64,000 bases of DNA from Bacillota bacterium (GCA_012728375.1 JAAYFF010000003.1:5427-69426); one strand, 5' to 3'. Positions 3,201-35,295 are shown, counted from the stretch's first letter. The notes: generated by a model from the sequence alone, not told the origin. A program made the numbers and translations.

Positions 3201-3721
3201 CTCTTGGTGAGCTGGCGGAATTGGATGACCGGAGCCGGGTTACAGTGGTGGGGATGATCAGTTCTGTAAAGACAATTTATACAAAAAAGGGCCGGCCCAT
3301 GTCTTTCCTAGATGTTGAAGATCTTACCGGAGAACTTGAAGTTGTCATCTTCAGCGATCTGTACGAACAGCATCAACAAGACCTGGAGGAAGGAAGAGTA
3401 ATCCTGGCCGGCGGCGTTCTGGACTTAAAAGAGGAAGAAACCGTTAAAATGCTTTGCGAGGAGATTACTTTTTTGCCGCGGGAACCCAGGCAGCTCTTAA
3501 TCACTATTAGCCGCGACAAGTCTTTCCGGGAACTGCTGGATCTGAAAAATATTCTTACTTCCTTTCGGGGAGGAACACCTGTTTATCTTTATTTAGAAGG
3601 AAGAGAAAAGCTTATTCTAACAGGGCAGGAGTGCTGGGTCAATGACCCGGAGAAAGTAAAACCAAAAATAGAGAATCTCCTTGGAACCGGGTCCGTAAAA
3701 ATAGAAGAGATAGAAAACTGA
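290..3721 (+). CDS. dnaE: DNA polymerase III subunit alpha
   Basis: PHP domain (HLHVHTEYSLLDG), GRGSAAGS, PDVDIDF catalytic motif, C-terminal OB fold. Start moved to TTG 290 behind GGAGG (ORF track starts at 188). Confidence 0.97.
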   Translation: MFIHLHVHTEYSLLDGAARIRSLVDKAAELGMPAVAITDHGAMYGVIEFYKAARAKGIKPLIGCEVYVAPKGRFRKEGNRDNLYHHLVLLAKDEEGYRNLVKIVSAGFLEGFYYKPRVDKELLLQYNKGLIALSACMAGEIPELLLRGEEKKALETALWYRDTFGEGNFYLELQNQGIPEQKELNRKLFELGRAVGIPLVATNDVHYLEREDAEAHDVLLCIQTGKNIDDPKRLKFESDNFYFKSEKEMQEAFDGFPAEVLENTCKIAEKINLDFEFNKRYLPRYKIPPSYSTPEEYLRDLCREGLAKRYTKITPAIQERLDYELRVIEQMGFAGYFLIVWDFVNFAVKKGIPVGPGRGSAAGSLVAYSLFITNIDPLRYGLLFERFLNPERVTMPDVDIDFCYERRDEVIRYVVEKYGEDRVAQIITFGTMAARMAVRDVGRALNFTYAEADRVAKAIPEELGMTIQKALEMNPELFELYNTDERYRKLLDISRKVEGLPRHASTHAAGVVISENPLVDHVPLQKTNGTLVTQFPMNILEELGLLKMDFLGLRTLTIMEEAVRQVNQRRGEEKKEKKLDLAAIPLDDALTFSLLSQGDTGGVFQLESSGMRSVLRELKPTSFEDIIAVVALYRPGPMEQIPVFIESKHGDKEISYLHPDLEPILKETYGVIVYQEQIMEIAARMAGFSLGQADLLRRAIGKKKKEILDEQRQLFIGGVEKKGYSKKLGEDLYDLIVKFASYGFNKSHAAAYAMVAYQTAYLKANYPVEFMAALLTGVMSNTARIALYIADCRRQGIEILPPDVNESETNFTVVGPKKIRFGLAAIKNVGKGAIETIIGTRKKEGKFTGLGDFCRKVDLRTCNRKVLESLIKCGAFDSLGGFRSQYLNYLDQALQSGQQIQKDKMNGQISMFSYLGEEKFAGEQGDDLAPLPEFSQREKLIFEKELTGLYISGHPLDQYRQILENLKGATPLGELAELDDRSRVTVVGMISSVKTIYTKKGRPMSFLDVEDLTGELEVVIFSDLYEQHQQDLEEGRVILAGGVLDLKEEETVKMLCEEITFLPREPRQLLITISRDKSFRELLDLKNILTSFRGGTPVYLYLEGREKLILTGQECWVNDPEKVKPKIENLLGTGSVKIEEIEN

Positions 3722-32992: not shown

Positions 32993-33769
32993 TTAGATTT
33001 GTTGAGGCAGTTTGGAAAAGAGGGTGATTAATTGTTCAACTTTATCTCCGTCAAGGCCCAAGGAGGCAGCCCTTTGGACAGCATTCTGCCACTTGGTATC
33101 AGCATTTTCCTTGACAATTAAGAAGTTTTTATATGCCTGTAGGGAAGGCGGATCCTTGTAGATGCAAACCACATGGCCGATGATCCGGTGATCGGGGCCG
33201 ACGGGTATATCCTTGTAGTTCGGGTTGGCGGAACGGAGAAAAGTTCCTCCGCTTTCCTGCACAAAAAATTTTAAGGAAGCCGACCAGAACAGCTCTTCAA
33301 CGCCTGCCGCAACAATCATGCCATGGACGGGGTTCTCTGTTTTTTTTAGGATGGCGATGTCTCCCTCGTGAATCCCTACCCAGGACATGGAATCACCTAT
33401 AATGCGAAGGGCAAAGTCCGCATTAAGGCCTTCTGCTACTTCTATTTCCCCCTCCCAATTATCAAAGGCCAGAAGGGGCAGCCCGGCACGAATAGTGCCG
33501 ATAAGGGGAATTTTCTTTTGCTTTCCGCCGACCGGAACTGTTCGATCTTCCGGCCGGGGAAGATCAGTCCTGCCAAAGAGGTAGTCGATAGAGACATCGA
33601 GAAGATCTGCTATTTTTTTTACCTGTTCAAAAGTACTCGGCTCCCTGTAATTTCTTTCCCATCCCGAAACTGTTCCAATCTCTACGCGGAGAAGATCGGC
33701 AAGTTCTTTTTGTGTCCAGCCTTTTTGCTTTCGGGCAGCTTTTAAGCGCGTTGCAAATATATTGCTCAA
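32993..33769 (-). CDS. XRE-HTH / S24 peptidase repressor (LexA/CI-like)
   Basis: HTH (RLKAARKQKGWTQKELA...WE), Ala-Gly cleavage site IRAG, catalytic Ser GDSM and Lys ASLKF. Confidence 0.92.
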   Translation of the reverse strand: MSNIFATRLKAARKQKGWTQKELADLLRVEIGTVSGWERNYREPSTFEQVKKIADLLDVSIDYLFGRTDLPRPEDRTVPVGGKQKKIPLIGTIRAGLPLLAFDNWEGEIEVAEGLNADFALRIIGDSMSWVGIHEGDIAILKKTENPVHGMIVAAGVEELFWSASLKFFVQESGGTFLRSANPNYKDIPVGPDHRIIGHVVCIYKDPPSLQAYKNFLIVKENADTKWQNAVQRAASLGLDGDKVEQLITLFSKLPQQI

Positions 33770-33789
33770 AAAAAACCCTCCCTGGGATA

Positions 33790-33818
33790 ATTATACCAAT
33801 AATTAAGCGCTTTGTAAA
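33790..33818 (-). promoter_or_regulatory. SigA-type promoter of the repressor, overlapped by an operator-like site
   Basis: TTTACA-N17-TATAAT with TG extension on the minus strand; CGCTTA half-site in the spacer. Confidence 0.65.
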
Positions 33819-33833
33819 TTACGGGAAGCTTTC

Positions 33834-33863
33834 TTGACAATTATAAATAAGTATTTATATAAT
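33834..33863 (+). promoter_or_regulatory. SigA-type promoter of the Mrr-like gene
   Basis: TTGACA-N18-TATAAT. Confidence 0.6.
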
Positions 33864-33896
33864 GCAATAGGTAAAAATAGCAAAGGGGTTCAGGAC

Positions 33897-34562
33897 ATGA
33901 TTTTTGAGACAATCACAAATGTTCTTTCAAAGATAATAGATATTCTTGCCCTTATAGGTGCTGCTGCCAGAGAACTGGTAATTCTTATTCCTTTTATTCT
34001 GGCAGCTGTTTTCTGGGTATTGATTGGAAATTACCGCGATGAATTGTCCTATAGGCGCCTCCGGCTATCGCGTATCGGAGAGATTGATGAGCTAAATTAT
34101 CAAAAATATTATCTTTTTTTGAAAGCGTTTCTCAGTGCAATGGATTTTCATGAAGAAATTTTGCCTGCTGAAGAGGAAGAAGAAAATGAGGATGATGGTT
34201 ATCTGGGAAAAAACACAAAAAAGGAAAAAAAGGAAACAGATATTGACGAGCCTTTGGTATTCATCAAAGATGGCATACGCTACGGGGTGTTGCTGGAAAA
34301 AAAGAAGCTGGGGGTAGGACCTCTTGCTTTTAATAAATTGGAGAAGGTTATGGGAGAGCGCGAATGCCAAGAGGGGATCATTATTAATAATGGCCTTTTT
34401 TCTAAGGCTGACCTGGCAGAAGGGAAAGCAAGGGATATTAAGTTGTGGGATCGGGAGTGGCTAATTAAAGAACTCCTGGAGATGCAGGGATTCGAGGACA
34501 CAAAAGGGAAAGATTTTAATTATTATTTTTATGATTTTTGGAGATGGGCCCTGTGGGGTTAG
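33897..34562 (+). CDS. Membrane-anchored Mrr-like (restriction endonuclease fold) protein, degenerate
   Basis: N-terminal hydrophobic helix, acidic linker, then KDGIRYGVLLEK...GIIINNGLFS...IKLWDREWL resembling Mrr_cat; ATG 33897. Confidence 0.6.
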   Translation: MIFETITNVLSKIIDILALIGAAARELVILIPFILAAVFWVLIGNYRDELSYRRLRLSRIGEIDELNYQKYYLFLKAFLSAMDFHEEILPAEEEEENEDDGYLGKNTKKEKKETDIDEPLVFIKDGIRYGVLLEKKKLGVGPLAFNKLEKVMGERECQEGIIINNGLFSKADLAEGKARDIKLWDREWLIKELLEMQGFEDTKGKDFNYYFYDFWRWALWG

Positions 34563-34573
34563 CGAAAGTCTTA

Positions 34574-34659
34574 TAAGCGCAACGCTTAATATTTTAAAAT
34601 ATTCCTTGACTGACTAATACAAAACGCTTATAATACTTTTAAGGTAAACGAAATGCTTA
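34574..34659 (+). promoter_or_regulatory. SigA promoter with three operator-like sites upstream of the comK-like gene
   Basis: TTGACT(34606)-N17-TATAAT(34629); TAAGCG-CAA-CGCTTA (34574), AATACA-AAA-CGCTTA (34616), TAAACG-AAA-TGCTTA (34645). Confidence 0.75.
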
Positions 34660-34671
34660 TGTAGGATTGGA

Positions 34672-35295
34672 GTGAAAGGAATGCCCAGGAAGGAAGAGAG
34701 GATTCAGCAGTACCTGGAAGAAACAATTCAGGCTCTGTTACCTGTTTATGACGGGGACGGAAGCGGTTCCCTCGTTTATACGCGCAAAAACCGGTTCAGG
34801 GACTCGCGAAGTTTGCCGTGGCTTGTCAACAGGCTTGCTCATTATTTCAGCCTCGATCTGGCGGTACTGCGGAAAAGAAGCGCGTCATTGCTGAACCAAA
34901 AGCACCATCTTTCTATTCCCCTTAGCCCTGATCTGATTCTTCTGCCGGTCAAAGTGCGCCAAGCTGCTCTGCAGGGTGAGACAACAATAGCGTATATAAG
35001 CTTGACGGAAATAGAGAATTTGCAAGAAATCAAAGACAACCCCCCTTACAAGTCGGCGATCCTTTTGCACGGGGGACGGGTTATTAAAAGTCTGCACGGG
35101 GTGTCCTCTCTCCGGGAACGAATCCGACAGGGAGAGCTTGTGGGGGAAGACTTTAGAAGCCGTAGAAAAAGTACTGCTGCTGTGACAGGGCTTGATTCGT
35201 CTGAACTTCTTTCTGCACTGCCCGGTTGCACATGTTTTTTGAAGGATCTTTTTACTGCGGTTGTTTCTCTGGCTGCTAAAGCCGGGAGTTTTTGA
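34672..35295 (+). CDS. ComK family protein
   Basis: LLPVYDGDG, LAHYFSLDLAVLRK, IPLSPDLILLPVKVR pattern recalled from clostridial ComK-family proteins. Confidence 0.7.
   Translation: MKGMPRKEERIQQYLEETIQALLPVYDGDGSGSLVYTRKNRFRDSRSLPWLVNRLAHYFSLDLAVLRKRSASLLNQKHHLSIPLSPDLILLPVKVRQAALQGETTIAYISLTEIENLQEIKDNPPYKSAILLHGGRVIKSLHGVSSLRERIRQGELVGEDFRSRRKSTAAVTGLDSSELLSALPGCTCFLKDLFTAVVSLAAKAGSF

Follow-up and report, generated by a model that had tools for sequence, protein, structure and literature searches.

Two regulatory pairs of Pseudomonas aeruginosa, PrtR-PrtN (pyocin) and AlpR-AlpA (self-lysis), place a chromosomal, RecA-cleavable CI/LexA-like repressor beside the true LexA of the cell (PMC9578287). 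The regulons of PrtR and AlpR are tiny, the main target of each being the gene of a second-tier regulator that switches on the output genes (PMC9578287). In Lactococcus and Streptococcus, HdiR is a host regulator that couples an XRE-type helix-turn-helix (HTH) to an S24 peptidase domain and self-cleaves with RecA on single-stranded DNA (ssDNA); it is the SOS regulator of Streptococcaceae and acts mainly on error-prone polymerases (PMC9578287). The locus analyzed here occupies positions 32,993 to 35,295 of a 64,000-nucleotide stretch of Bacillota bacterium DNA (GCA_012728375.1 JAAYFF010000003.1:5427-69426), called the window below, and contains the genes of an XRE-S24 repressor, an Mrr-like protein and a ComK-like protein. 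An initial annotation, generated from this DNA alone, had proposed a damage-inducible switch in which the CI/LexA-like repressor controls its own expression and that of the ComK-like gene. ComK is the textbook competence switch. Its described control runs through MecA/ClpCP/ComS, AbrB, CodY, Rok, DegU and autoactivation, not through a LexA-type repressor, and in streptococci and Legionella the induction of competence by DNA damage is known only as an indirect effect. No description of a ComK-type protein controlled by an S24 repressor or through a LexA box turned up in the literature searches.

Comparative sequence evidence supported the gating proposal, namely the operators of orthologous loci, a parallel arrangement in a second genus (g7), the joint presence and absence of the two partners, and LexA boxes in relatives. 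The locus is probably a chromosomally fixed, two-gene SOS-type switch in which a private S24 repressor gates the ComK-like gene and itself. In the proposed mechanism, the XRE-S24 protein would bind a 15-bp operator, roughly WWRCR-N3-YGCTTA, placed over the ComK-like transcription start (site 3), with an auxiliary copy upstream (site 1) and, in the window's genome, an extra copy across the -10 element (site 2). A further copy in the repressor's own promoter (site 4) would allow it to silence itself together with the ComK-like gene; all sites are listed in Table 1. Upon DNA damage, RecA-ssDNA filaments would trigger self-cleavage at Ala95-Gly96 by Ser127/Lys167 and both promoters would be released. 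The ComK-like protein would then be made, and would most likely bind DNA and run a second-tier response. The private repressor would in this way stand in for canonical LexA, which appears to control this gene family in most of the related genera. We infer the binding of the repressor to these sites, its RecA-triggered cleavage and the activity of the ComK-like protein from sequence comparison.

The repressor carries the features of the XRE-S24 class. Pfam assigns its N-terminus to HTH_3 (52.9 bits) and identifies a Peptidase_S24 domain (71.8 bits), and the protein has an Ala-Gly cleavage site and a Ser/Lys dyad. Ala95-Gly96, Ser127 (GDSM) and Lys167 are invariant columns in an alignment (A7) of the repressor, its orthologue, four second-genus repressors, two distant homologues and the true LexA of its own genome, so that the catalytic residues had been correctly recognized at the outset. 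Its score against the LexA equivalog TIGR00498 (62.9 bits) stems from the S24 part alone and falls below the cut-off of 110.95, and its N-terminus is HTH_3, not the LexA winged helix. The best viral family is phrog_4, which comprises CI-type transcriptional repressors (E 4.7e-36, residues 3-206). Repeated operators over its own promoter and that of its target, a further mark of the class, are indicated by the position and conservation of the candidate sites. The S24 domain is followed by a C-terminal extension of ~50 amino acids (DPPSLQAYKN...LGLDG..VEQL; window 32993-33150) that is missing from LexA and from the g7 repressors and is common to ~100 full-length homologues (44-50% identity) across Clostridia-like genomes, from Desulfitobacterium, Heliophilum, Formimonas and many metagenome-assembled genomes. 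This extension could be an extra input or an oligomerization module.

All five candidate operators of the initial annotation were present as placed, but conservation was restricted to sites 3 and 4 and, in part, site 1. The half-site CGCTTA/TAAGCG has 854 copies in the 2.38-Mb genome (~1 per 2.8 kb); five of them fall inside 888 bp at the locus, where ~0.3 would be expected, and the perfect 15-mer palindrome TAAGCGCAACGCTTA of site 1 is a single copy in the genome. Conservation was assessed by comparing the window with two orthologous loci (G004 and G001), whose proteins are 65-79% identical. In the ComK-like promoter of the three orthologues, the only conserved blocks are the -35 and -10 hexamers, both invariant, the ribosome-binding site and GTAAACG..A.GCTTAT; the spacer between the hexamers varies. 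The last block is site 3, which lies ten bases past the -10 at the same position in all three orthologues and has diverged flanks. The repressor promoter of G004 and G001 is conserved across the entire spacer TTTACAAAGCGCTTAATTATTGGTATAAT with site 4 inside it, reading TTTACA-AAR-YGCTTA in both. Since conservation of the whole spacer is not needed for promoter function alone, it was counted in favor of site 4 as an operator. Site 1 reads TAAGCT-TTT-CGCTTA in G001 and is degenerate in G004. A role of site 1 as terminator of the Mrr-like gene was unsupported, the corresponding RNA hairpin being no stabler than shuffled sequence (z = -0.76); in the orthologues, separate terminators lie upstream of site 1.

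Homologues of the ComK-like protein were found in 45 of 61 related genomes, and a maximum-likelihood tree resolved them into three groups, A, B and C, with the window's gene in clade C (support 100/99). Clade A belongs to the window's family, and in many of its genomes the gene lies reversed between dnaK-dnaJ and rsmE-mtaB; clade B comprises three other families of the order. The clade-A copy has been lost from the window's genome, in which dnaJ and rsmE are adjacent on C27. In g7 (three genomes) and in one metagenome contig, a clade-C gene is divergent from a full-length XRE-S24 repressor that is only ~30% identical to that of the window. Two of these four g7-type loci (L032 and L051) carry three palindromes TTGCR-N3-YGCAA, spaced 37-40 bp apart and confined to the intergenic region between repressor and ComK-like gene, where they occupy the repressor promoter spacer, the -35 of the ComK-like promoter and the position directly past its -10. 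Degenerate versions are found at the other two (L030 and L037). The window-type and g7-type operators have a common GCG-N3-CGC core. Judged by these features, the g7-type arrangement is the architecture of the window with a different repressor and a different predicted operator.

Other members of the family were found behind LexA boxes. Three g10 clade-C loci carry a perfect GAAC-N4-GTTC between -35 and -10, and five paralogues of one related genome (G019) carry CGAAC-N4-GTTGG directly past the -10. The readable clade-A promoters have the form TTGACA-..CGAACA..TGT(A/G)CG.-TATAAT, and clade-B members of families f5 and f2 have the boxes CGAACATATGTTCG and CGAACACATGTTTG; L043 and L041 are the clade-B loci noted alongside the clade-A ones of Table 1. 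Within 348 kb of retrieved loci, five of the seven perfect LexA boxes lie upstream of the ComK-like family. The family's boxes are similar to those through which lexA of this lineage would regulate itself, CGAACC(R)TTGTTTG. The type of operator thus tracks the available regulator while the regulated gene stays constant, which argues that the adjacent repressor, and not the ComK-like protein or an unrelated factor, is the binder. LexA boxes on family members that lack a private repressor argue for DNA damage as the usual input of the family. Because the core, clade-A copy has a LexA-type box in its promoter, the family looks like an undescribed member of the SOS regulon, and the uncharacterized ComK-like protein looks, from these promoters, like a regular part of the SOS response in related bacteria.

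The window's genome encodes RecA and, elsewhere, a true LexA (TIGR00498, 241.8 bits), and a perfect LexA box is located past the -10 of its gene for dinB/DNA polymerase IV; the RecA-LexA machinery that a switch of this kind would require is therefore encoded. No Cheo-type box (GAAC-N4-GTTY) was found in window positions 33600-34800, and action of canonical LexA at this locus was rejected on that ground. Separately, on contig C4 of the same genome, two near-identical promoters (TTTATAAT...), near 3506 and 10030, each have a perfect LexA box and a second half-box downstream. They precede genes for small proteins of 99 and 131 amino acids, the latter cysteine-rich, which are likely uncharacterized SOS genes.

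The CGCTTA-type sites might instead be something other than operators of the repressor: the ComK-like protein could use them for autoregulation, an unlinked factor could bind them, or they could be AT-rich promoter sequence arisen by chance. The repressor would then control only itself or something else. B. subtilis ComK does activate its own promoter, most of the sites have only one good half-site, and site 1 also fits a weak terminator-like pattern. An autoregulatory site should track the ComK-like protein, yet the operator changes with the neighbor: g1 has the TAAGCG type and g7 the TTGCG type, and a LexA box is found where the private repressor is missing, although the ComK-like proteins form one clade. 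One copy also lies in the repressor's own promoter in each system, and the hairpin of site 1 performs no better than shuffled sequence. This explanation was accordingly considered highly improbable.

Several observations weigh against a repressor-operated, damage-responsive switch. Site 2 is specific to the window's genome and absent from G004 and G001. Site 4 overlaps the -35 hexamer, which is conserved anyway, and site 5 is conserved within the conserved R-L-K codons of the repressor gene, so that its conservation is uninformative on binding. The left half-sites are weak and site 1 is the one true palindrome, which makes the binding geometry uncertain. In a genome scan with an operator position weight matrix (PWM), site 3 scored highest, but some of the scored sites had gone into the PWM itself, and the genome-wide ranking is to that extent circular. 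Four clade-C loci (L028, L029, L039 and L045) have neither a private S24 repressor nor a recognizable LexA box. The ComK-like protein has no direct Pfam match and no solved structural relative, and its DNA binding is inferred from distant homology. The conserved C-terminal extension of the repressor could add or replace an input, and a response to RecA is not universal among XRE-S24 proteins.

The last two points bear on the possibility that the repressor gates the ComK-like gene without sensing RecA or DNA damage, responding to another signal (for example heat, as in HdiR, a protease, or an input received by the C-terminal extension) or being simply stable. The extension, conserved across ~100 homologues and not found in LexA or g7 repressors, would suit such a role, and HdiR of Lactococcus, the best-known XRE-S24 host regulator of Bacillota, is reported to be heat-inducible as well and to involve ClpP (cited in PMC9578287). 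Strict conservation of the Ala-Gly site and the Ser/Lys dyad speaks for cleavage. In relatives, members of the family have canonical LexA boxes in front of them, as would be expected if DNA damage were the input that the private repressor took over. We regard a non-RecA input as unlikely.

With the private repressor retained as the predicted regulator of both promoters, its reach appears to be local. The genome-wide PWM scan returned no convincing intergenic target beyond the locus, its remaining matches being coding hits and one decent hit in the dnaA-rnpA (origin) region. A global regulon was rejected, given that the perfect palindrome is unique and that the PWM has no credible distant target.

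The two partners are inherited together. Of the five genus genomes, G000, G001 and G004 have the ComK-like gene as well as the repressor orthologue (77-79% identity), and G002 and G003 have neither; in these two the gene order is PFK - typA - Mrr-like - DUF2619. The PFK, Mrr-like, DUF2619 and spermidine-synthase-like genes are syntenic in all five genus genomes. The synteny comparison, one of the checks proposed initially, recovered the repressor/ComK-like pairing in three genus genomes with a parallel in the second genus. The Mrr-like gene was rejected as a component of the switch: it occurs in 5/5 genus genomes, including the two without repressor and ComK-like gene. Because the partners flank this resident gene yet are gained or lost jointly, it is best regarded as a bystander. 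Its product has a hydrophobic N-terminus and a marginal match to Mrr_cat (PF04471; 22.6 bits against a cut-off of 21, profile positions 40-113/115), and a (D/E)-x9-10-E-x-K pattern is kept in seven homologues. No match was obtained for it in NCBIfam, PHROGs or PADLOC. The distance from its promoter to site 4 varies among the orthologues. At the G004 locus (L026 5967-6350), the repressor and Mrr-like genes are separated by an inserted extra gene, which is directly divergent from the repressor promoter and encodes a multi-pass membrane protein of 127 amino acids without a family match.

Another explanation is that the locus is the immunity leftover of an integrative element or prophage that has decayed. 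A CI-type repressor and an early gene would then persist in the genus by inheritance, with no host function. The phrog_4 assignment of the repressor fits this origin, as do its ~45-50%-identical relatives in Desulfitobacterium and Formimonas, which are divergent from small Cro-like HTH genes, one of them near a serine recombinase and many small open reading frames. Clade C, moreover, shifts its genomic context, is multi-copy in G019 and is absent in two of the five genus genomes. The immediate surroundings tell otherwise: the ~8 kb to each side are free of integrase, recombinase and phage structural genes, as the initial annotation had noted for phage genes nearby, and the neighbors are housekeeping genes. 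Searches of phage records (50,697), plasmid records (72,556), PHROGs and PADLOC returned no match to the ComK-like protein. In three species, at 65-79% protein identity, the two genes remain intact and retain near-consensus promoters, and they flank a resident host gene instead of forming one insert. Finally, members of the sister clades occupy a housekeeping locus (dnaJ / X / rsmE-mtaB) and are preceded by LexA boxes. A prophage remnant was consequently judged quite improbable, and the locus was not classed as prophage immunity.

The ComK-family assignment of the third gene stood only in a remote form. The direct search that had been suggested was negative: the protein gave no match to Pfam PF06338 even at E<=10 (gathering score 22.3 bits), nor did a six-frame PF06338 scan of the whole genome at E<=10 or a comparison of PF06338 with the orthologous genes of 60 relatives. 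NCBIfam likewise returned no match. A profile of the nine closest homologues, searched against 1.84 billion cluster representatives, recruited 590 of them at E<=0.001, and 21 of 109 sampled proteins from this search matched PF06338. Three covered nearly the whole model and scored above the 22.3-bit cut-off (P0114, 40.5 bits; P0105, 28.3 bits; P0159, 22.4 bits), and P0105, from Thermovenabulum, carries the NCBI name 'competence protein ComK'. Alignment of the window's clade with the ComK-positive proteins by hhalign gave a probability of 99.8% (E 5.7e-28, 154 columns), so that homology to bona fide ComK members was established by profile methods. The product of 34681-35295 is, on this sequence evidence, a solid case of a distant, divergent member of the ComK superfamily and not a Pfam-level ComK.

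An AlphaFold2 model of the protein was of high quality (predicted local distance difference test 94, predicted template modeling score 0.82). No fold match to it was found in the PDB or BFVD at E<0.001, and the weak resemblances that were seen, all partial, were to the LytTR DNA-binding beta fold and to PH-like and FlbD-like beta domains. A sequence-profile search of the PDB also returned nothing. The genome encodes ComEC and RecA, both of which are near-universal.

Copies of the ComK-like gene are numerous in one related genome, G019, where 13 matches to the protein are spread over approximately nine loci (including L031, L033, L034, L035, L037, L074 and L075); a further copy lies at L045 of G016. 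The G019 paralogues are ~84-86% identical in DNA and the repeat consists of the gene and ~110 bp of promoter only, which makes a transposable element unlikely. Approximately six clade-C loci, mostly G019 paralogues, adjoin type III restriction-modification, methylase, ResIII or DUF499 genes, and other neighbors in G019 and G016 include a 928-amino-acid methylase with a Schlafen/AlbA_2 ATPase, ResIII fragments and a helicase. The family's neighbors suggest restriction/defense genes as another possible theme besides competence; the hints are the clade-C loci beside restriction genes and the window's copy beside the Mrr-like gene.

Other recurrent arrangements were seen around these genes. Upstream of clade-C genes, an XRE HTH gene is paired with one for Peptidase_M78 (IrrE/ImmA-like) at L038 1714-2900, for a 274-amino-acid protein at L040 413-1662 and for a 'PhageMetallopep' protein at L039 663-2122; at L038 and L040 the pair coexists with a perfect LexA box in the ComK-like promoter. 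By analogy, the XRE + M78/metallopeptidase pairs resemble a second class of cleavable-repressor switch. A small-gene cluster DUF1659-DUF2922-YvrJ is divergent from a homologous XRE-S24 repressor in Heliophilum (L078 2582-3738) and lies directly downstream of the ComK-like gene on the g7-type metagenome contig (L051 3398-4156); it may be another recurrent partner of these XRE-S24 repressors.

The coordinates of the locus are collected in Table 1. Each gene, promoter and site element of the initial annotation was found in its place, including the ComK-like promoter TTGACT-N17-TATAAT, with a consensus match of 11/12. The promoters of all three genes are close to consensus and of sigma-70 type. 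The reading frame of the third gene was likewise unchanged, but its GTG start at 34672 gives way to the ATG at 34681, which is preceded by GGAG at a distance of 8 nucleotides and is also the start in public gene calls. The locus is flanked by DUF1538, P-II, RmuC and PFK genes on one side and by DUF2619, a spermidine-synthase-like gene, trpA/B/F/C/D and acs on the other. Within 34509-34603, site 1 is followed, ahead of the ComK-like -35, by an AT-rich overlapping palindrome, AATATTTTAAAATATT (34588-34603), which is unconserved in the orthologues and may be a UP-element-like tract or chance.

Table 1 Features of the repressor/ComK-like locus (window coordinates) and clade-A loci with a LexA-type box.
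Feature	Position	Strand	Size or sequence	Remarks
XRE-S24 repressor gene	32993..33769	-	258 amino acids, TTG start	HTH_3 + Peptidase_S24
Site 5	33757-33743	-	TTTGCA-ACG-CGCTTA	Within the repressor's first codons
Repressor promoter	33818-33790	-	TTTACA-17-TATAAT	11/12 in consensus scan
Site 4	33823-33809	-	TTTACA-AAG-CGCTTA	-35 and spacer of repressor promoter; proposed autoregulatory operator
Mrr-like gene promoter	33834-33863	+	TTGACA-18-TATAAT	12/12 in consensus scan; without conserved operator
Mrr_cat-like membrane-anchored protein gene	33897..34562	+	221 amino acids	
Site 1	34574-34588	+	TAAGCG-CAA-CGCTTA	Perfect palindrome upstream of ComK-like -35; proposed auxiliary operator
ComK-like gene promoter	34606-34634	+	TTGACT-17-TATAAT	11/12 in consensus scan
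Site 2	34616-34630	+	AATACA-AAA-CGCTTA	Across spacer and -10 of ComK-like promoter; window's genome only
Site 3	34645-34659	+	TAAACG-AAA-TGCTTA	10 nucleotides past -10, over expected transcription start; main proposed operator
ComK-superfamily gene, clade C	34681..35295	+	204 amino acids	Proposed switch output
Clade-A loci with LexA-type box	L059, L061, L062, L064-L068, L071, L073			Box between -35 and -10

A wider reading, extending to the whole order of uncultured anaerobic-digester Bacillota, is possible and was entertained tentatively, as a rather doubtful extension of the local one. It holds that the only ComK-superfamily protein of these bacteria would be a direct SOS-regulon member, acting as second-tier regulator of a damage-induced ComK-like program, and that in several lineages a private CI-like repressor or, perhaps, XRE + metallopeptidase pairs would have taken the place of its LexA box. 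The program could be DNA uptake and recombination, or the control of restriction/defense genes. If this reading is true, the ComK-like family forms a natural series of rewired SOS outputs, and if the output is competence, it supplies a hard-wired link from LexA to ComK and from DNA damage to transformation.

A ComK relative under direct SOS-type control would make it testable whether damage licenses DNA uptake or restriction changes in these anaerobes. The apparent placement of one output gene under canonical LexA, under two unrelated private S24 repressors and possibly under XRE/metallopeptidase pairs is useful for studying the evolution of regulatory swaps. SOS induction would also be the first functional handle on an unannotated family of ~590 protein clusters.

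Among described systems, lambda-type CI/Cro regions are similar in that an HTH + S24 repressor is divergent from its target with spaced operators over both promoters; three palindromes 37-40 bp apart at two g7-type loci and the phrog_4 match add to the likeness. The window's locus differs by having no prophage context, and the position of cro is held by a 204-amino-acid ComK-like protein, or a host gene intervenes. The ComK of B. subtilis shares superfamily homology and a similar length with the ComK-like protein, and the two aligned collinearly over nearly their whole length, an alignment that counts as no more than a lead. Unlike ComK, the window's protein has no direct PF06338 match and falls in a clade of its own, whose members conserve the motif LPxCxCFL at the C-terminus, and the window and its relatives carry predicted S24-repressor operators or LexA boxes in the promoter. 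The LexA regulon of Bacillota (Cheo box CGAACN4GTTCG; divergent lexA-yneA) is resembled by the relatives' ComK-like core promoters with Cheo-type boxes and by the shared S24 chemistry, whereas the window's repressor has an XRE HTH, a LexA score below cut-off, another operator and no Cheo box.

HdiR, with its XRE-type HTH and S24 domain in Bacillota, is the closest relative in kind within the phylum; in contrast to the HdiR system, a canonical LexA is retained in the window's genome, and the private repressor apparently acts on a single gene besides its own. The PrtR-PrtN and AlpR-AlpA pairs differ in belonging to another phylum and in their second tier, which is PrtN or the AlpA antiterminator where the present locus has a ComK-superfamily protein, and no pyocin, tailocin or lysis genes lie near the window's locus. 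They nevertheless share with it a LexA-like repressor that works alongside the true LexA and gates, here by prediction, a single second-tier regulator, and they are its closest working analogue.

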